Shown: positions 34,221 through 63,430 of the stretch, in pieces
Numbering within the stretch: the first letter of the stretch is position 1
How the letters are laid out: each line of letters begins with the position of its first letter
DNA from: Nitrospirota bacterium
GTDB lineage: Bacteria; Nitrospirota; UBA9217
Direction: 5' to 3'
Assembly: GCA_963737155.1 (NCBI GenBank)
Contig: CAVTRN010000001.1
Span: forward strand, 256,001-320,000
DNA length: 64,000 nt
Notes under the pieces: model-generated
The model's input: the letters and a program-made list of their open reading frames with translations, nothing else
Told to the model about the DNA's origin: nothing
The model's database searches: none
Made by a program: the position numbers and the translations under genes

Positions 34221-34758
34221 CAAATGGCTCCGTAAAATCCGTGCGTTCAGACGGGGGATATAAAGCGTTGACACGAAGCAATCAGGCGGAAATTTCTTGC
34301 TGTTCGATGTATCGTTTAATGCTATGGAGTGGAGCGCCTCCGCAAGATGCAGCAAAATAGCTAGGAGACCATAAGGCGTCTTTCCAATAATGTTTGCGCA
34401 GATCGTTGTGCGCTCTTTTCATTAATCTTGCAGATACTCCTTTGAGGCTATTTACTATTTTAGCGACCGGCGTTTTAGGTTGATAGTTAATCAGCAGGTG
34501 GACATGATCTCGCTCACCATCTATTCCCACCAGTTCAGCCTCGAAATCCCGGCAAACTTCGGCGAAAATAGTTTTCATGGAGTCGTAATGCTTTTTCTGG
34601 AATATTTGCCGCCGGTATTTGGTGACAAAGACCAAATGCACGTGTAAATTGAATACACAATGCCTGCCGTGTCTAATATCGGTTGACTTTTTCATAGACC
34701 AATGATATCATAGCGCATGATAGTTTGCAAGATCTTTGCGTGCCGGATAAGTGGCTAA
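34221..34758. mobile_element. Truncated IS200/IS605-family element (left end + tnpA + tnpB stub)
   Basis: TTAT target (34217-34220) then CAAATGGCTCCGTAAAATCCGTGCG-TTCA-GACGGGGGATATAAAG subterminal hairpin; intact tnpA; divergent 13-aa stub; no right end seen. Confidence 0.7.
34282..34695 (-). CDS. tnpA: IS200/IS605 Y1 (HUH) transposase TnpA
   Basis: HLVFVTKYRR, DHVHLL (HUH), SLKGVSAR, LWSPSYF, YIEQQ. Confidence 0.95.
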   Translation of the reverse strand: MKKSTDIRHGRHCVFNLHVHLVFVTKYRRQIFQKKHYDSMKTIFAEVCRDFEAELVGIDGERDHVHLLINYQPKTPVAKIVNSLKGVSARLMKRAHNDLRKHYWKDALWSPSYFAASCGGAPLHSIKRYIEQQEISA

Positions 34759-35844: not shown

Positions 35845-36951
35845 TTATGAGCGGCACCGGCCCTTGAATGTCCAGTACGAATTCAGAAAATAATTGACGA
35901 GGGTGGCGGGCACGATGCCCACGGCTTGGTGCACTTGCGGAATGCCGCGGGGATTAAGTGCGCTCAGCAGCAGAAAGGTCGTATAGCTCATACCGAGCGC
36001 GGCGAATGAAATAATATTGAATTTAAGACCGCGAATATGAATCTTGTCGTTCATTTCCTGCTTGGAGAACGTCCAGTAATTGTTCAGCAGGAAATTGGTG
36101 ATGATTGAAATTTCTATCGCGATAGGTGATGCGATAAATTTGTTCAACCCTGCGTTCATCAGTATCGTGAAGAAAACCAGGTTCACCGCCACGCCGCTCG
36201 CTCCGACCACCAGGAATTTCAGGAAGGTCTTGCTCCGCTCGAACCGGATCCACCAAGCGTTCAGCATAAATTCGCCGATATCTGAAATCCCCATTTTCGT
36301 GTTTCCTCGTTTCCTGTCCACGAAATGGACCGGGATTTCACTCACCTTCGCGCCATTCACGATCGCCTCATGAAGAAGCGATATTTGGAACGCGTAGCCC
36401 CGAACCCGGAACGCATCGAGATCGATCCGTTTGATAATGTCCGCACGGATCGCGCGAAAACCCGCGGTGCAGTCCCGCACCCGATAGACGCCGGCAACAT
36501 ACCGCGCGAAAACGTTCCCCCACTTGGAGATCATCCTGCGCAGCAGCCCCCAATCTTTAGGAATCCGGCCGCCCGGAACATACCTGCTGCCGATAACAAA
36601 ATCGGCACCCTGGTCGATGGCCTCGATCAGCCGCGGCACATCCTCGGGCTTGTGCGAGAAGTCGGAGTCCATTTCCATAACCACGTCGGCATGCAGCACG
36701 TCGATCGCGTGCTTCATGCCCCTGATATACGCCGCTCCCAGCCCGCACTTTTCCCCGGTCAGCAGGAACACATTGGGCGCCTTGCTGCTTGCGGCTCTGA
36801 CAATATCAGCGGTACCGTCCGGAGAATTGTCATCAACGACCAGAATGCTCATATGATGCGAAATCCTTTTAAATTGCAGCATGAGCGAGTCGATCATGAG
36901 CGATATGTTTTCTTTTTCGTTGTAAGTCGGAAGAATAACTACGATTTTCAT
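35845..36951 (-). CDS. Polyprenol-phosphate glycosyltransferase (GT2, DPM1-like) fused to a GtrA flippase domain
   Basis: PTYNEKENI, VDDNSPDGT, MDSDFSH, GSRY, DCTAGFR; C-terminal KFLVVG..VNL..NFLLNNYWTF; ATGA overlap with the upstream gene. Confidence 0.9.
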   Translation of the reverse strand: MKIVVILPTYNEKENISLMIDSLMLQFKRISHHMSILVVDDNSPDGTADIVRAASSKAPNVFLLTGEKCGLGAAYIRGMKHAIDVLHADVVMEMDSDFSHKPEDVPRLIEAIDQGADFVIGSRYVPGGRIPKDWGLLRRMISKWGNVFARYVAGVYRVRDCTAGFRAIRADIIKRIDLDAFRVRGYAFQISLLHEAIVNGAKVSEIPVHFVDRKRGNTKMGISDIGEFMLNAWWIRFERSKTFLKFLVVGASGVAVNLVFFTILMNAGLNKFIASPIAIEISIITNFLLNNYWTFSKQEMNDKIHIRGLKFNIISFAALGMSYTTFLLLSALNPRGIPQVHQAVGIVPATLVNYFLNSYWTFKGRCRS

Positions 36952-38219
36952 GAAACCCCTGAACGCGGAACGTTTCCCCCGGCTAACGGATTTGCCACGT
37001 CCGTAAACAGCCGGAAAAGCGTGTATGCGGCGAAGAACACAGCAACGAATGGGGGCAACCATATCGGTTCAGCGTGCGGGGCAAGTAACCGCTCGATAAA
37101 CCTGGTAGCGATGAGCAAAATGACCATGCCGACAAGCAGCATGCCTTGCTCCCTCCTTTGTTCAATCAGGAATGCGGAGGCAAGAAAGGCGGCAATTGCG
37201 GGACTAAGCATGGCATAAGTGTTGTTTTCGGTTCTTGGACTGAACAGCATAAGGTACAATGACGCAAGCGTGAAAAGGTAGAGCGCTGCGCGGGAAGGTT
37301 CCAGGCGCCGTTTCATGAACAAACAAAGAAGCAGCGTGGCAATCGCACCGGCAATTCGTATGGCGGTCTGAATGTTCTCCGGCACCTCAGCAATACCAAG
37401 CGCGCGCAACGCGGTGAATGGAGTCGTCCATCCCCAGACTGAGACCCCAACATGCGCGGCAGTGATCATGTTCTGCACGCATGCGATATATTGCTGCACG
37501 ACATAGCTCGGCGCTTGTGTGAGAAAAGGCGCCATCGCCGTCACTCCCATGCCCACGAGCAGCCGCCAACTCATCCTTCGGTCAATCGCCATGACCAGCA
37601 GTACGAGCACCAGGACCAGCGGCTTGATCGCAACGCCGAGCGACAGCCAGAGCGTCGCCCTCCACCAGCGGGCGTGTGCTATGTCCGAAACCGCAAGCAG
37701 CATCAAGCCAGTAATGATCAGCGTAGCCTGTCCGTTGCGCGCGCAGTCCCAGACCAACGGAATAGTCACAAGCGACAACAGAGGGAAAAACTCCCCTGCT
37801 GAGCGCTCTCCCGCGAGCCTGCCTAACCGGTAGAGGCCTGCAGCAAATACGGCGACCATGGTCATCCGCCACAGGATCTCCCCGGCAGTCGTTGGAAAAA
37901 GCGCGTACGGAACGAACAGAACTGCCGCTTGCGGCAGATACACGAAGCCGCCCACGCCTTTGAGATCGTACAGGGGCTGTCCGCTGATCCAACTCAGCGC
38001 ACCGGTCCGGTATGATGGAACGACGGACCGTTTTCCGACAACAGCGACAATCGCAGATACCGCAAGAAACAGAACAATCCATCCTGCCACCGCGATCCGC
38101 ATCGCCTGTTTGTTGCTCACCATCGACATGATTGACTCCGCTTCCGATCGAACCACCACAGGCACATTATCCGGCCGGTTGATCTCCATAAATATATCAG
38201 AATCGCACCATCCTATCAA
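36948..38219 (-). CDS. GT87/DUF2029-like multi-pass glycosyltransferase (start uncertain, possibly 38189 or 38129)
   Basis: FVYLPQAAVLFVPY, RNGQ, IKPL; many TM helices. Confidence 0.75.
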   Translation of the reverse strand: MIGWCDSDIFMEINRPDNVPVVVRSEAESIMSMVSNKQAMRIAVAGWIVLFLAVSAIVAVVGKRSVVPSYRTGALSWISGQPLYDLKGVGGFVYLPQAAVLFVPYALFPTTAGEILWRMTMVAVFAAGLYRLGRLAGERSAGEFFPLLSLVTIPLVWDCARNGQATLIITGLMLLAVSDIAHARWWRATLWLSLGVAIKPLVLVLVLLVMAIDRRMSWRLLVGMGVTAMAPFLTQAPSYVVQQYIACVQNMITAAHVGVSVWGWTTPFTALRALGIAEVPENIQTAIRIAGAIATLLLCLFMKRRLEPSRAALYLFTLASLYLMLFSPRTENNTYAMLSPAIAAFLASAFLIEQRREQGMLLVGMVILLIATRFIERLLAPHAEPIWLPPFVAVFFAAYTLFRLFTDVANPLAGGNVPRSGVS

Positions 38220-38427
38220 ATACTATTTGCGGTAATTGCCGTGTTCAATCTCACAAGGCGCGCCTCCTCAGCACATTTACATTTACGTATGTGCGTTCGC
38301 AGCAATCTGCCAATTGGCGACCAGTTTCGATGTCCGAATTGTCTCATGGGGTAATGATTTTCCTTGTAAATTCTTGTATAATACGATACTTTTAATATTT
38401 AAATACCCTGGTAATTGGCTGGAACCT

Positions 38428-40131
38428 GTGAAGAACAACATTTATTCCGCATCAGCATTGATACTTCTATTTGTGTTCTGGATGACGCCCGGTCTTATCG
38501 GCCGCGAGCCTTGGAAGGCAGACGAACCCCTCAACTTTGGAATCGCTGATGAAATGATGCGGTCCGGTGATTGGATTGTCCCCCGGTTGACCGGTGAAAC
38601 CTTCCTTGAAAAACCTCCCCTCTATTATGCGACCGCCGCGGTATGCGGCAGGCTGTTTTCTCCGCCACTCCAATTGTACGACGCCTGCCGCATTGCCACT
38701 GCTTTTTATATGTTTCTTGCCGTCCTTTTTTTCGCGCTCACGGCGCGGGAGTTATACGGGCCGGAATTCGGGGGCAGTGCCGTATTTCTGCTGATCAGCT
38801 GTGTTGCGCTTCAGGTAGCCGGCCATAAAATAATTCCCGATGTCGGCCTCTTTGCCGGATTTTCCATCGCTATCTACGGTCTCGCGCTCTGCAGAAGAAG
38901 GAAAACATTGGGCGGATTCTGGATTGGAACGGGAACCGGAATAGGATTTCTGACAAAAGGGCTGCTCGCACCGGGCATATTGGGTATTATCGCCGTCCTT
39001 CTTCCCCTGTTTTTCCCCGCGTGGCGACGAAAGGACTACCGTCATTCCCTCTTGGTAGCCTTTGCGGCCGCCCTGCCCTGGCTCACGATCTGGCCTTTTG
39101 CGCTTTTCCACCGGTCTCCCGATTTTTTCATGCAATGGCTCGTACACGAGAACTTCGGACGTTTTTTGGGGAACAACTACGGCGGAACTGTGGGATTCGA
39201 CGAGCACAAACTGAATTCCCACGCTTATTTTTTGACGAGCCTGATCTGGCTTGCATGGCCAGCCGTGCTTCCGGCTGCATGGTCACTCTGGCATTTCCGG
39301 CAGACACGCCGAGACCACCCCGTTTATCAAGTTCCTGTTCTCGTATTCGTGGTGATGCTTGCAACGCTCTGCATATCTGCGACGAGCCGTTCGATCTATG
39401 CCATGCCGATACTGCTGCCGATATCCCTGATTGCGCTCCCGGTAATACCAAAGATCCCGGCTCGCATGACCAGGTTCGGAAATTGGTTCAGCATTCTGTT
39501 CTCCGGCGGCCTCGCACTCGTATTGTGGTTCGGCTGGCTGGCCATGATAACCGGCAGTCCGGCGGTCATCGCGCAAAAGCTGCACTATTTCCTGCCGGAT
39601 TATATCCCTGCAGTAAAAGGGATATTGCTGGTTGCAGCGCTCTGCTACTCCCTTGTGTGGCTATTCATGGTTGTCGCGATTACCCGCGTAGATAAGGATT
39701 TTATCGTAAACTGGACACTCGGCGTACTGCTGATTTGGGGGCTTCTCATGACGCTCTGGCTTCCGGCCCTGAATTCGGGCTCAAGCTACCGCGCTGCCTT
39801 CACGGACCTGAAGAAGTCCTTACCGCAGGAATATTCCTGTATTGCAAGCCGCGGCCTTGGTGAATCGGAGAGGGCCATGCTCAAATACTTTACCGGTCTG
39901 CAAACACTCAGGGTTGAGACAGCCGGATCACCGGGAAATTGCGACCTGCTACTCGAAGAGCAGAGCGGAGACGACGTCAGAAAACCGCAAGCCGGCATGC
40001 AACTCATATGGGAATTCGACCATCCAAGCAGCAGACCCAAGAACATCTTCACCCTTTTCCGGATAAACACCGCAAAAACGTCGAGTAGAGTAAAAGCTTA
40101 CCATGCAACGTCAGATGTGAAGCACAGTTGA
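38428..40131 (+). CDS. ArnT/GT83-like lipid-linked glycosyltransferase
   Basis: PWKADEP, GDWIVPRL.GE.FLEKPPLYY, GFLTKG, ENFGRF; many TM helices. Confidence 0.85.
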   Translation: MKNNIYSASALILLFVFWMTPGLIGREPWKADEPLNFGIADEMMRSGDWIVPRLTGETFLEKPPLYYATAAVCGRLFSPPLQLYDACRIATAFYMFLAVLFFALTARELYGPEFGGSAVFLLISCVALQVAGHKIIPDVGLFAGFSIAIYGLALCRRRKTLGGFWIGTGTGIGFLTKGLLAPGILGIIAVLLPLFFPAWRRKDYRHSLLVAFAAALPWLTIWPFALFHRSPDFFMQWLVHENFGRFLGNNYGGTVGFDEHKLNSHAYFLTSLIWLAWPAVLPAAWSLWHFRQTRRDHPVYQVPVLVFVVMLATLCISATSRSIYAMPILLPISLIALPVIPKIPARMTRFGNWFSILFSGGLALVLWFGWLAMITGSPAVIAQKLHYFLPDYIPAVKGILLVAALCYSLVWLFMVVAITRVDKDFIVNWTLGVLLIWGLLMTLWLPALNSGSSYRAAFTDLKKSLPQEYSCIASRGLGESERAMLKYFTGLQTLRVETAGSPGNCDLLLEEQSGDDVRKPQAGMQLIWEFDHPSSRPKNIFTLFRINTAKTSSRVKAYHATSDVKHS

Positions 40132-40283
40132 ATGATCAATAAAATGCTTTAATTTTTCATCAACCCAATTGCCGATTTAGGATATTTGATTCGCCAACTT
40201 ACCATTCGTTGATAATCCTCCCCCCATGAAGAGCGTGGTACAAGTCCTTTTTCTTTGCATTCTTGATATAATGCACGCCTCAT

Positions 40284-40360
40284 TTTCTCACATCTGCCAA
40301 ATAGGAGCAGGACTGGTCTTGCGTGAATTCAAGCAGTTATATTTTGGCATGCGAACTGCA
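40284..40360 (+). promoter_or_regulatory. sigma54 promoter (40345-40360) with IHF-like site (40327-40339) and palindromic upstream motif (40284-40301)
   Basis: TGGCATGCGAACTGCA (GG-N10-GC); ATTCAAGCAGTTA (one mismatch to WATCAAN4TTR); TTTCTCA-CATC-TGCCAAA. Confidence 0.72.
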
Positions 40361-40399
40361 ATAACACTGGCAAGACTGAACGAAAAGGGGGACACAAAA

Positions 40400-40705
40400 A
40401 TGAATACCACTCTCTCAAGAAAAACAGCATACATCGGGGCAGGCGCAGGGCTGGTGATCTTTGCTCTCTTCGGACTCCTTCCTGGCAGTCTTCTGGGCGG
40501 CGCCGCGGGAATCAAAGTAGCGGGGCTGTTCTTCGGGCTTCCCCTCGATCCAGGCATCTTGTCACGGGCGATCGTGCTCTCTTCCATGCTCGTGGGCGTC
40601 GTGGTCGCGGGGATCACGATCGTTACCGCCACGGCCACCCTGGGATGGCTCGGGGGCAGAGTGCTTGAGGGATCGGCAGAGAAGAAGACCTCGGAAGTTG
40701 CATAA
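40400..40705 (+). CDS. Uncharacterised Gly-rich small membrane protein, subunit A copy 1
   Basis: AAGGGGG RBS; 101 aa, hydrophobic; clear paralog of 62718..63062. Confidence 0.85.
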   Translation: MNTTLSRKTAYIGAGAGLVIFALFGLLPGSLLGGAAGIKVAGLFFGLPLDPGILSRAIVLSSMLVGVVVAGITIVTATATLGWLGGRVLEGSAEKKTSEVA

Positions 40706-40770
40706 CTTAACAATCACAGGTGCGAAGGCACATCAAATTTCTATGGCTGCGGCCAAGAGGAGACACTATC

Positions 40771-41088
40771 ATGAAGAACGAGACGGTAAAATCAGGTATG
40801 AAGATTGGTGCAACAATAGGCGGTTTGGTATTCCTGGTGTTCGGCATCATGCCGGGGTTCTATTTCGGGAGCTACGGGACTCTGATCCTGCTTCAGAAGC
40901 TGATGGGCGGTCCGGTTGAGCCGACGCTCGTCGTCAGGGCGGCGATTGTGATAGGGATCATGGTTGGCATTTCCTGCGCGGCCGCGGTGAGCATTGTGGT
41001 GGGCGGCCTTCTGGGCACGGTGGCCGGACTTGTAGTCTCCACCCCCGAAGCTCTGCGCAACAAGCAGGCTGCTGCCGAAAAGGCGTAA
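40771..41088 (+). CDS. Uncharacterised Gly-rich small membrane protein, subunit B copy 1
   Basis: GAGGAG RBS; 105 aa, hydrophobic; clear paralog of 62414..62728. Confidence 0.85.
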   Translation: MKNETVKSGMKIGATIGGLVFLVFGIMPGFYFGSYGTLILLQKLMGGPVEPTLVVRAAIVIGIMVGISCAAAVSIVVGGLLGTVAGLVVSTPEALRNKQAAAEKA

Positions 41089-41143
41089 GGAAACGCCCGT
41101 CACCAAACGACGGAAAATCTCAAGCTTTTAGAATGCAAATGCC

Positions 41144-41174
41144 AGGGCGGTGAGAAATCACCGCCCTCTGTTGT
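41144..41174 (+). terminator. Hairpin closing the A1-B1 cassette
   Basis: AGGGCGGTGA-GAAA-TCACCGCCCT perfect 10-bp stem; weak U tract. Confidence 0.6.
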
Positions 41175-62133: not shown

Positions 62134-62413
62134 GCATTTTGTGCACAAGGTCATAGAGATGACATTATTTTGCACTTAGTTATTGTTTATACATTACACA
62201 AAAAACCATTAAAATCATTTAGTTACGTAATTGGTTTGAATAAAAAAACAGCCTGAAGAAAATGAAGGTCTGAATGGCTTTTGATGAGTATCGGAGCGGG
62301 AACTGCAATTTACATTGGTTTCATTTGCGGAGTACTGTTTCTTTCACAAAACGGGCGAGAGCGGTAATTTATTTTGTCCCCTCTCGCCTCAAATGGCATT
62401 TCACATGTTTAGG

Positions 62414-62728
62414 TCATTTTTCAGGAATTGCCTGATTCTCTCTCTGCGCTGTCGGAGCGGAGACAACATAACCAAATGCCGTACCAACAAGACCGCCAAT
62501 CACCAAACTTGCAGTCGCCGCACAGGTGATCCCTATTACGATTCCCATTACGATTGCGGCGCGCACGAACAGTGTCGGTTCCACCGTACCGCCCATAAAC
62601 TTCTGGAGCAGGATTAGGGTCCCGAAGCCCCCGAAATAGAAACCAGGTATGACGCCGAATAGCAGGAATACCAGCCCGCCGATTGTTGCCCCTATTTTCA
62701 TGCCCGCTTTGATCGCATTATCCTTCAT
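62414..62728 (-). CDS. Uncharacterised Gly-rich small membrane protein, subunit B copy 2
   Basis: Paralog of 40771..41088 (GMKIGATIGGLVFL.FG..PGFYFG..GTLILLQK.MGG.VEPTL.VRAAIV); AAGGAG RBS. Confidence 0.85.
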   Translation of the reverse strand: MKDNAIKAGMKIGATIGGLVFLLFGVIPGFYFGGFGTLILLQKFMGGTVEPTLFVRAAIVMGIVIGITCAATASLVIGGLVGTAFGYVVSAPTAQRENQAIPEK

Positions 62729-63062
62729 TGCTATCTCTCCTTGTCTTGGATAATCCTTGTTCTTCCCCAGCTTCTTTCGCGTGCGCTCCTGACTCTAGGA
62801 CTTTGCCGACAAGCCATCCCACGGTTGATGTAGCCGTCACAATCACGATGCCTGACACAAGAATCCCCACGAGCATTGAAGACAGCACGATAATTCTCGA
62901 TATAAGACCGGGCTGAAGCGGAAGGCCAAAAAACCAGCCTGCTATACTGATACCGGCTGCTCCTCCCATAAGGCTTCCCAGAAGCAGTCCGAATAATGCA
63001 AACAAAACGAGACCTGCACCTGCACCGATATACGCTGTCTTTCTTGAAATTGTCGTCTTCAT
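62718..63062 (-). CDS. Uncharacterised Gly-rich small membrane protein, subunit A copy 2
   Basis: Paralog of 40400..40705 (SRKTAYIGAGAGLV.FALFGLL.GS..GGAAGI..FFGLPL.PG..SR.IVLSSMLVG); TAAGGAGG RBS. Confidence 0.85.
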   Translation of the reverse strand: MKTTISRKTAYIGAGAGLVLFALFGLLLGSLMGGAAGISIAGWFFGLPLQPGLISRIIVLSSMLVGILVSGIVIVTATSTVGWLVGKVLESGAHAKEAGEEQGLSKTRRDSNEG

Positions 63063-63099: not shown

Positions 63100-63175
63100 T
63101 GCATCAAGCATGCCAGAATATAAGTAATTGATTTATTAAAATATATCTAGGATTTTCTTTCGCAAAAATGAGAAA
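63100..63175 (-). promoter_or_regulatory. sigma54 promoter (63100-63115) with IHF site (63121-63133) and palindromic upstream motif (63158-63175)
   Basis: Minus strand TGGCATGCTTGATGCA (GG-N10-GC); AATCAATTACTTA (exact WATCAAN4TTR); TTTCTCA-TTTT-TGCGAAA. Confidence 0.75.
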
Positions 63176-63430
63176 AGAATGCGTTTAATTATATGATTGC
63201 GAAACGATACAGCTGAAATTAAAAGCAGTCACTGGTCCTCGGATAACTAAAGAAAGCTCCTCCGGGCTACGACACGAAAGTTAAAACACTTGTGCTATAT
63301 CTGCATTACATTCATGGTATGATCTCCTGCTATGTCTTACTATTTTTGAATTAATCATTTTCATCGATGGTTGACTATTTTCTCTAACTGAACTATCGTG
63401 AGAAAAAATGTCGGTAACTGAACATTTTCC

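Follow-up and report, generated by a model that had tools for sequence, protein, structure and literature searches.

Paired glycine-rich membrane proteins in dispersed sigma-54 cassettes of a Nitrospirota bacterium, probable outputs of a CbcBA-like respiratory regulon

The Escherichia coli gene pspG, which encodes an orphan small integral membrane protein, has its own sigma-54 promoter, activator sites and an integration host factor (IHF) site, and is co-regulated with a distant operon. Membrane proteins of the HIG1/Rcf1 type are hairpins of ~100 amino acids (aa) that are induced by hypoxia and act on respiratory complexes. In Geobacter sulfurreducens, according to the accessible part of the preprint, the cbcBA operon is transcribed from a sigma-54 promoter, requires the activator BccR (receiver, sigma-54 and helix-turn-helix (HTH) domains) and is strongly induced as the redox potential falls, and CbcBA is proposed to provide a non-energy-conserving route (bioRxiv 10.1101/2021.04.15.440034). 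The Geobacter proteins GSU0597 and GSU3489 appear in the accessible part of the literature only as "hypothetical proteins," and one paper predicts an inner-membrane location for GSU3489. Here, we analyze a 64-kb stretch of a Nitrospirota bacterium genome (assembly GCA_963737155.1, contig CAVTRN010000001.1, positions 256,001 to 320,000; hereafter, the window), which carries two cassettes, each encoding a pair of mutually homologous glycine-rich membrane proteins, denoted A and B, that are probably outputs of a respiratory regulon of the BccR/CbcBA kind.

The window contains two A-then-B pairs of glycine-rich proteins of ~100 aa, at 40400-41088 on the forward strand and at 63062-62414 on the reverse strand (Table 1), and both the open reading frames and the sequence comparison confirm the same-order recurrence reported by a first-pass annotation that was made from the letters of the window. 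A1 and A2 are identical at 72 of 98 positions (73%, E 2e-36), and B1 and B2 at 72 of 104 (69%, E 4e-52), close to the 70-75% that had been estimated by eye. A1 and B1 align without gaps over all 101 residues, with 24 identities (24%, E 4e-8). When nine A and nine B sequences are aligned, the core is essentially free of gaps, and the invariant columns (besides M1, these are G13, A14, G17, F21, G25, G29, G33, R56, G66, G82 and G86) fit the shared motif from which the mutual homology of A and B had been proposed. A1 and B1 are separated by 65 bases, and B1 has its own Shine-Dalgarno sequence. Annotation of the neighboring genes (a GT-like gene, rsmA, prfC, rplM and rpsI) likewise agrees with the description of the cassettes as stand-alone units amid housekeeping genes.

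The motif TGGCAYGNNNNNTGCA (TGGCAYG-N5-TGCA), characteristic of sigma-54 promoters, occurs exactly twice in the window, against an expectation of 0.02 (none of 100 shuffles gave two), each time 53-55 bases 5' of an A start. It is kept in all 29 upstream regions of the close set of relatives, and of the seven loci in five distant Nitrospirota genomes, five carry the strict motif and the other two carry variants recognizable by eye. The genome encodes rpoN (C2:1434445-1434921; C1 and C2 denote its two contigs) and yields 19 Sigma54_activat matches. The sigma-54 drive suggested by the first-pass annotation thus holds up, and sigma-54 control of the cassettes is well supported by these promoter sequences. 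The putative enhancer elements farther upstream are also conserved in the 29 upstream regions, and in the distant Nitrospirota the enhancer consists of two clean tandem TTYGCA-N4-TGCRAA palindromes. At the IHF-like position, AATCAAnnnnTTA is conserved in most relatives and fits what we take to be the IHF consensus. In a divergent subgroup of the family (loci L077-L088), GTCGG-N6-CCGAC-like repeats lie 5' of the sigma-54 motif, replacing the TTYGCA-N4-TGCRAA palindrome, so the Nitrospirota palindrome is not universal.

RNA-library contigs of relatives (peat and soil, three studies; 85-92% alike) cover 40381-41089 and then end. They start at 40381-40399, downstream of the sigma-54 motif, and several carry adapter sequence at the 5' side. 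The share of sampled words of the stretch found in the RNA runs is only 0.04-0.07, and the contigs, which come from relatives, define no RNA ends, strand or level, nor are the uncovered flanks evidence; they give a weak hint of a discrete bicistronic A-B transcript.

A genome-wide search for the sigma-54 motif combined with the proximal enhancer element at the cassette distance singled out 6 of the 91 genomic sigma-54-like motifs, and at all six promoters the element is located at -57 to -59 of the sigma-54 motif. Four of these belong to the cassettes with an intact A gene, and the other two are located at C2:437347 and C2:2164346. The promoter at C2:2164346 is followed by a gene for a cytochrome c that contains seven CXXCH motifs and has a membrane helix at its C-terminus, and then by a Ni_hydr_CYTB cytochrome b, that is, by a CbcA/CbcB-like pair. 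The promoter at C2:437347, which also has an IHF-like site, is followed by a gene for a 138-aa protein (C2:437428-437844; L045:2929-3345), the structural model of which (predicted local distance difference test score (pLDDT) 89.3) has a SpoIIAA/STAS fold (1thn_B, E 3e-5). This protein belongs to no Pfam family, and its 89 homologs are found only in Nitrospirota; the STAS-fold model rules against its being a receiver like GSU0596. What these shared promoter sequences add to the first-pass annotation is that the cassettes appear to be one output of a regulon common to a CbcBA-like cytochrome operon. Since the enhancer, the IHF-like site and the sigma-54 promoter are the same in all intact units, one signal should induce all of them together.

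In other genomes, members of the family are found next to respiratory genes. In G256 and G013, which represent two other Nitrospirota families, A and B are followed by a heptahaem CbcA-like cytochrome and a CbcB-like protein, with an activator and a kinase encoded on the opposite strand, and in G256, where the pair comes first behind a sigma-54 promoter, the B stop is ~15 bases from the cytochrome start. In G068, the family gene or genes are followed by genes for NrfD, an Fe-S protein (Fer4) and a cytochrome c7, with a kinase and an activator alongside. The operon of G321 encodes NrfD, an Fe-S protein (Fer4) and a nine-haem cytochrome, that of G030 an Fe-S protein, NrfD, a molybdopterin oxidoreductase and a 15-haem cytochrome, and that of G021 a molybdopterin oxidoreductase and a 12-haem cytochrome. 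The divergent-subgroup contigs L078/L079, L083 and L088 carry the family gene followed by a cytochrome c with seven CXXCH motifs, of 517-581 aa, which is full length in L079, L083 and L088 and ends at the contig edge in L078. By Pfam, this protein has a Ni_hydr_CYTB domain in L083 and L088 and lacks it in L079. A 12-haem cytochrome and a receiver/sigma-54 activator are encoded in L079 and L088, and a kinase in L079, L083 and L088; L083 has the kinase, with neither a 12-haem cytochrome nor an activator seen there. The sigma-54 motif is present in L078/L079 and L083, and none was found on the strand of the gene in L088 with the pattern used. In four other long contigs of the divergent subgroup, the family gene stands alone.

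The activator encoded next to the G068 operon has its best match in the present genome in the gene C2:2301599-2302951 (match at C2:2301605-2302948, 54% identity, against at most 48% for other genes), and the G068 kinase fragment has its best match in the gene directly upstream. In the reverse search against five genomes, the top match was 53-56% identical (E 1e-155 to 1e-161) and the next at most 47% (E 1e-124), and in three of the five (G068, G013 and G256) the top match adjoins the A-B operon. The product of C2:2301599-2302951 combines receiver and sigma-54 domains, and its loop motif reads GSFTSA in place of GAFTGA, which is why it is missing from the list of the 13 GAFTGA proteins of the genome. 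None of the 16 near-perfect palindromes in the genome is close to an activator gene. On sequence grounds, C2:2301599-2302951 is likely to be the activator of the cassettes, and we refer to it as the candidate activator. The upstream kinase, of 750 aa, has two membrane segments flanking ~270 residues with a single CXXCH motif that is kept in G013 and G256; thus, a haem-binding periplasmic sensor is plausible.

We consider it reasonably probable that A and B are abundant inner-membrane hairpins and outputs of a BccR/CbcBA-like respiratory regulon, which in this genome are uncoupled from the cytochromes and amplified. Each cassette would be a bicistronic, sigma-54-dependent operon for two paralogous inner-membrane proteins of ~100 aa. 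Members of the family usually come first behind the sigma-54 promoter in operons whose products pass electrons of the quinone pool on to multihaem cytochromes in the periplasm, and three types of such operons can be recognized: CbcA/CbcB; NrfD with an Fe-S protein and cytochrome c; and molybdopterin oxidoreductase with a multihaem cytochrome. Such operons are usually accompanied by a sensor kinase and a receiver/sigma-54 activator. The ancestral locus appears to have been dismantled in this genome, with the kinase and activator at C2:2299337-2302951, the CbcA/CbcB-like genes at C2:2.163 Mb and A-B at five sites. The inducing signal is probably the periplasmic redox state or acceptor limitation, and A and B would self-associate via their glycine faces and support or organize the co-induced quinol:cytochrome modules.

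The likeness to Geobacter cbcBA consists of a sigma-54 promoter, two small hypothetical proteins, a C-terminally anchored seven-haem cytochrome c, a cytochrome b, and a receiver/sigma-54/HTH activator alongside. The G256 and G013 loci have the same make-up, and in the present genome all the parts are found under one enhancer type. Unlike in Geobacter, A-B here is detached from the cytochromes, stands alone and is present in five copies; no receiver-only gene like GSU0596 was seen, whereas the STAS-fold gene has the same enhancer; and the activator is convergent or distant rather than divergent. Geobacter is the only case in which induction at low potential is known. The regulatory layout also resembles that of pspG, with the differences that A and B have no Pfam match above threshold and that the regulon partner is a cytochrome operon, not pspA. 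With HIG1/Rcf1 proteins no sequence or fold match was found, and the analogy is one of logic only.

Several observations weigh against this assignment. In the 401 sampled Nitrospirota genomes, the family and the CbcA-like orthologue (E 1e-30) occur together in 93, the family alone in 38, the cytochrome alone in 10 and neither in 260; hence 38 of the 131 family-positive genomes lack the orthologue, and the co-occurrence, which largely tracks a single clade, does not count as independent evidence. The sigma-54 module was found 5' of the cytochrome orthologue in 1 of 16 other genomes checked (G005), so that co-regulation through the enhancer is shown for this lineage only. Neither the cytochrome nor the STAS gene lies within 3 kb on either side of the 25 loci of close relatives, and the window cassettes themselves adjoin no cytochrome or regulator gene, so that in this genome they are tied to the cytochrome operon by the common enhancer alone. 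Five cassettes face one cytochrome operon, an excess that argues against a simple 1:1 subunit and leaves open a role as scaffold, leak or pore, or in kinase feedback. The Geobacter parallel is one of gene order and regulation only, and nothing solved, confidently matched or experimental bears on how A and B act.

Both proteins are predicted to form a hairpin of two long hydrophobic helices with Gly, Ala or Ser at every fourth residue. Glycine makes up 15-17% of the residues, hydropathy places the hydrophobic stretches at ~10-46 and ~53-88, and small-xxx-small ladders run along both. In the AlphaFold2 model of A1 (mean pLDDT 82.6), the helices span residues 5-45 and 53-100. The N-terminus has two or three basic residues and the soluble tails are very short; the loop contains a short conserved P-x-(D/E)-P...R element, in which an acidic residue is conserved and R56 is invariant. 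This arginine, located beside the loop, is the only invariant charged residue, and no polar or charged position is conserved within the hydrophobic helices. Since A and B have hardly any soluble part, they must act within the membrane. A B-like domain is fused to a C-terminal nucleotidyltransferase in all five proteins of this kind scanned (P0186, P0206, P0216, P0226 and P0256), and an A-like domain to PilZ in all three of the ~190-aa proteins scanned (P0203, P0236 and P0238). Since the nucleotidyltransferase and PilZ partners are both cytoplasmic, the C-terminus would be inside the cell, and a topology with cytoplasmic N- and C-termini and a periplasmic loop is the most likely. The nucleotidyltransferase fusions are ~410 aa long and have a Cys-rich C-terminal half, the family domain being the N-terminal membrane part. 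Natural tandem fusions of two and three family domains also occur; the idea that they represent A followed by B was rejected, as both domains belong to the third, divergent subgroup. A complex prediction for A with B from separate alignments gave a score of 0.00, which amounts to no answer and speaks neither for nor against binding, and a Foldseek search of the A1 model against the PDB returned generic helical hairpins, with a best E of 0.8.

The first-pass annotation did not recognize the family, and nothing significant was found in Pfam, NCBIfam, PADLOC, PHROGs, PDB sequences or Foldseek. For all four proteins, no Pfam family reached its curated cut-off (the best, Romo1, scored 17.8 against 27.6 bits, and Gly-zipper_YMGG 9 against 28.9 bits), NCBIfam gave nothing below E 0.4, and neither PADLOC nor PHROGs matched a family. 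The best hit of a PDB sequence-profile search was NuoK (E 0.11), two ESM Atlas searches gave only unnamed clusters from Nitrospirota and Myxococcota, and a literature search on Nitrospirota, sigma-54 and small membrane proteins yielded no relevant title. Gly-zipper_YMGG, Gly-zipper_OmpA and Romo1 share with A and B the small-xxx-small repeats in short hydrophobic proteins, and differ from them, besides the sub-cut-off scores, in length and in the two-long-helix architecture. A two-peptide class IIb bacteriocin was rejected as well (Bacteriocin_IIc E 1.4, 9.4 against 27.1 bits; housekeeping neighbors; C-terminal cytoplasmic fusions), as was a phage or anti-phage defense protein, no PHROGs or PADLOC model having matched. 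Some homologs (e.g., P0010, P0018, P0064 and P0081) carry source names without domain support, such as "small-conductance mechanosensitive channel," "pheromone shutdown protein TraB" and "O-antigen/teichoic acid export membrane protein." An MscS identity was dismissed, given that no Pfam domain was detected in the four proteins or in the 120 listed homologs and that the four proteins are 101-114 aa long, against ~280 or more for MscS.

The family is large, unnamed and uncharacterized. A word-indexed search returned 1254 proteins with an E of 0.01 or lower (no Pfam domain is recorded for any of the 120 listed), and an exhaustive profile search gave 399 clusters at 50% identity, the best 150 of which comprise 85 A-like, 52 B-like and 13 that are neither. 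The named close relatives are Nitrospirota metagenome-assembled genomes (MAGs) at 24 of 25 loci, the remaining one being a 4.4-kb contig binned as Betaproteobacteria. Within the phylum, the distribution is uneven: 57 of 63 genomes of the family (as a taxon) to which the window belongs are positive, and three large families have none (0/76, 0/28 and 0/40). A third, divergent subgroup is found in "Deltaproteobacteria" and Anaeromyxobacter MAGs, and its structural neighbors are from Myxococcota.

The genome, 4.84 Mb in two contigs, carries five cassettes, three of them intact, one with a decayed B gene and one broken, so that the cassette noted twice in the window occurs there as described and is present in five copies, not two, genome-wide. 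The unit start at 40284 given in the first-pass annotation falls within the upstream enhancer; the duplicated unit (99.8% identity) is 40247-41167, a 921-bp identity that spans exactly the region from the enhancer to the terminator hairpin. Its borders have no terminal repeats or target duplications, and there is no recombinase within the unit. For this copy, we consider transposition no more likely than gene conversion between older paralogous cassettes. Pairing of A with B, which the first-pass annotation had proposed as a check, prevails within Nitrospirota, and homologs are mostly single only outside the phylum. Both genes are full length at 19 of the 25 close loci (the A frame is broken in L041), B is decayed at two, three are cut by a contig end and one has A without a detectable B; all seven loci in the five distant Nitrospirota genomes have A adjacent to and followed by B. 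In five further genomes, the family genes form pairs or arrays of three or four, and two stand singly, and in the divergent non-Nitrospirota subgroup there is one gene at 10 of 12 metagenome loci.

The first-pass annotation had interpreted A and B as an inducible hetero-oligomeric membrane channel, ring or surface structure. The pairs, the paralogy, the sigma-54 promoters and the predicted membrane hairpin stand; a hetero-oligomer, channel, ring or surface structure is unproven, and nothing points to the last of these. The version of this interpretation in which A and B form a hetero-oligomeric ion-conducting ring or pore, possibly a regulated proton or ion leak that lowers the membrane potential and allows respiration at a very low acceptor potential, seems to us unlikely. 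The glycine-zipper ladders on both helices fit such a structure, the overlap of A2 and B2 and the tandem fusions suggest that several hairpins cooperate, and the gene dosage, with five cassettes, is high; the proposal, in the accessible part of the preprint, that CbcBA is non-energy-conserving in Geobacter (bioRxiv 10.1101/2021.04.15.440034) also lends itself to a leak. However, the hairpin is only loosely like that of ring formers (Foldseek lists ATP-synthase c subunits and KcsA with E values of 2 or more), no channel is matched significantly in structure or sequence, the helices lack conserved polar or charged residues, with R56 lying beside the loop, and abundant constitutive leaks would be costly. 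The possibility that A and B are Psp-like protectants against membrane or energy stress, induced through sigma-54 with no specific tie to cytochromes, we regard as distinctly improbable. Although the stand-alone units with sigma-54 and IHF-like sites recall E. coli pspG, the copies per genome are many, 38 of the 131 family-positive genomes lack a CbcA-like orthologue and copper, LTXXQ and ferritin genes are found near cassette 4, no Psp family is matched in Pfam, the enhancer is common to the cytochrome operon, and the family heads three respiratory operon designs in several Nitrospirota families and in divergent contigs from outside the phylum.

The small protein MgrB, which acts on PhoQ, offers the model for a role of A and B as small membrane feedback regulators of the haem-sensor kinase that tune their own two-component system. 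Among the products of the regulon they come first and are conserved most strongly, they are wholly embedded in the membrane except for very short soluble tails, and they are encoded together with the kinase/activator pair in G013, G256, G068, L079 and L088; yet five copies with strong ribosome-binding sites point to a bulk protein rather than a regulator, and the PilZ and nucleotidyltransferase fusions suggest a membrane-anchor role, so we give this idea little credence. Least probable is that the cassette is a mobile or selfish unit whose copy number reflects transposition rather than function. A 921-bp copy with two mismatches that runs exactly from enhancer to terminator, the Tn5-type transposase gene next to the C1 copy and the equal-scoring duplicate pairs in several related genomes would be expected of such a unit. 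Nevertheless, terminal repeats, target duplications and an internal recombinase are missing, two loci of one relative, L017 and L019, keep the spacing of the window cassettes (~21-27 kb on a single contig), identity that stops where the homology of the paralogues stops is expected from gene conversion, and the proteins are conserved across the phylum.

Table 1. Positions of the cassette features and of related loci (window coordinates, unless a contig is given)
Feature	Position	Strand	Description
Enhancer, cassette 1	40254-40300	+	Two degenerate TTYGCA-N4-TGCRAA copies: distal 40254-40269, proximal 40284-40300
IHF-like site, cassette 1	40326-40339	+	AATTCAAGCAGTTA; one mismatch to WATCAANNNNTTR, which we take to be the consensus
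Sigma-54 (-24/-12) promoter, cassette 1	40345-40360	+	TGGCATGCGAACTGCA; motif scan
Gene A1	40400-40705	+	101 aa; Gly-rich, predicted two-helix membrane protein (open reading frame, model, hydropathy)
Gene B1	40771-41088	+	105 aa; A1 paralogue
Terminator-like hairpin, end of cassette 1	41144-41167	+	GC-rich; fold -22.5 kcal/mol, z -3.8, 0/200 shuffles as stable
Distal enhancer element, cassette 2	63188-63204	-	TTCGCA-ATCA-TATAAT region; aligned by eye
Proximal enhancer element, cassette 2	63159-63175	-	TTTCTCATTTTTGCGAA; genome motif search
IHF-like site, cassette 2	63121-63133	-	AATCAATTACTTA; full match to the presumed consensus
Sigma-54 promoter, cassette 2	63100-63115	-	TGGCATGCTTGATGCA; motif scan
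Gene A2	62718-63062	-	114 aa
Gene B2	62414-62728	-	104 aa; start overlaps the A2 end by 11 bases
Terminator-like hairpin, end of cassette 2	62354-62388	-	Followed by GTTTTGTG; fold -21.2 kcal/mol, z -4.3, 0/200 shuffles as stable
Cassette copy	C1:1406177-1407097		921 bp of window 40247-41167, two mismatches
Cassette 4	C2:800833		Intact A, 81-aa B remnant
Further cassette	C2:1328521-1329003		Broken by stop codons
Kinase and candidate activator pair	G000:C2:2299337-2302951 (L112:338-3952)		Far from the cassettes

The hairpin at the end of cassette 1 is also the right border of the 921-bp duplicated unit. A consensus terminator scan called neither hairpin on the strand of its own cassette; that of cassette 1 was not listed because its T run is weak. 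Upstream of cassette 1, the window contains a GT87 glycosyltransferase gene (36948-38219), the neighbor of a 631-aa multi-pass membrane open reading frame (38236-40131, forward strand) that directly precedes the cassette and has no Pfam match at E 1e-5, as well as an IS200-like (Y1_Tnp) transposase gene (34282-34695, reverse strand) ~6 kb away. The C1:1406177-1407097 copy is adjoined by a 775-aa open frame (L042:9192-11519) in which a DruA-like region is joined to the DNA-binding and dimerization domains of Tn5-type transposases; on its other side is a stand-alone LigD 3'-phosphoesterase gene. Cassette 4 (L043, C2:792000-809000) is located amid genes for CopC, CopD, LTXXQ/heavy-metal-resistance, glycine-zipper lipoprotein-like and ferritin-like proteins.

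To conclude, we describe a family of small membrane proteins that repeatedly comes first in sigma-54-switched quinol-to-cytochrome operons, the type of module that enables Geobacter to respire at very low redox potential. A bolder and doubtful extension would make A and B an abundant glycine-zipper hetero-oligomer that is induced via a periplasmic haem-sensing kinase and constitutes an unrecognized part of low-energy respiration in Nitrospirota, Myxococcota and possibly Geobacter. If A and B are needed for the function or assembly of the modules, they would be a missing part of a respiratory switch that bears on metal and sulfur cycling in soils and sediments, the enhancer and promoter signature would serve as a convenient marker for the regulon in uncultured bacteria, and the dispersed, amplified cassettes of this lineage, in which the small proteins are separated from the cytochromes, would render their independent contribution testable.

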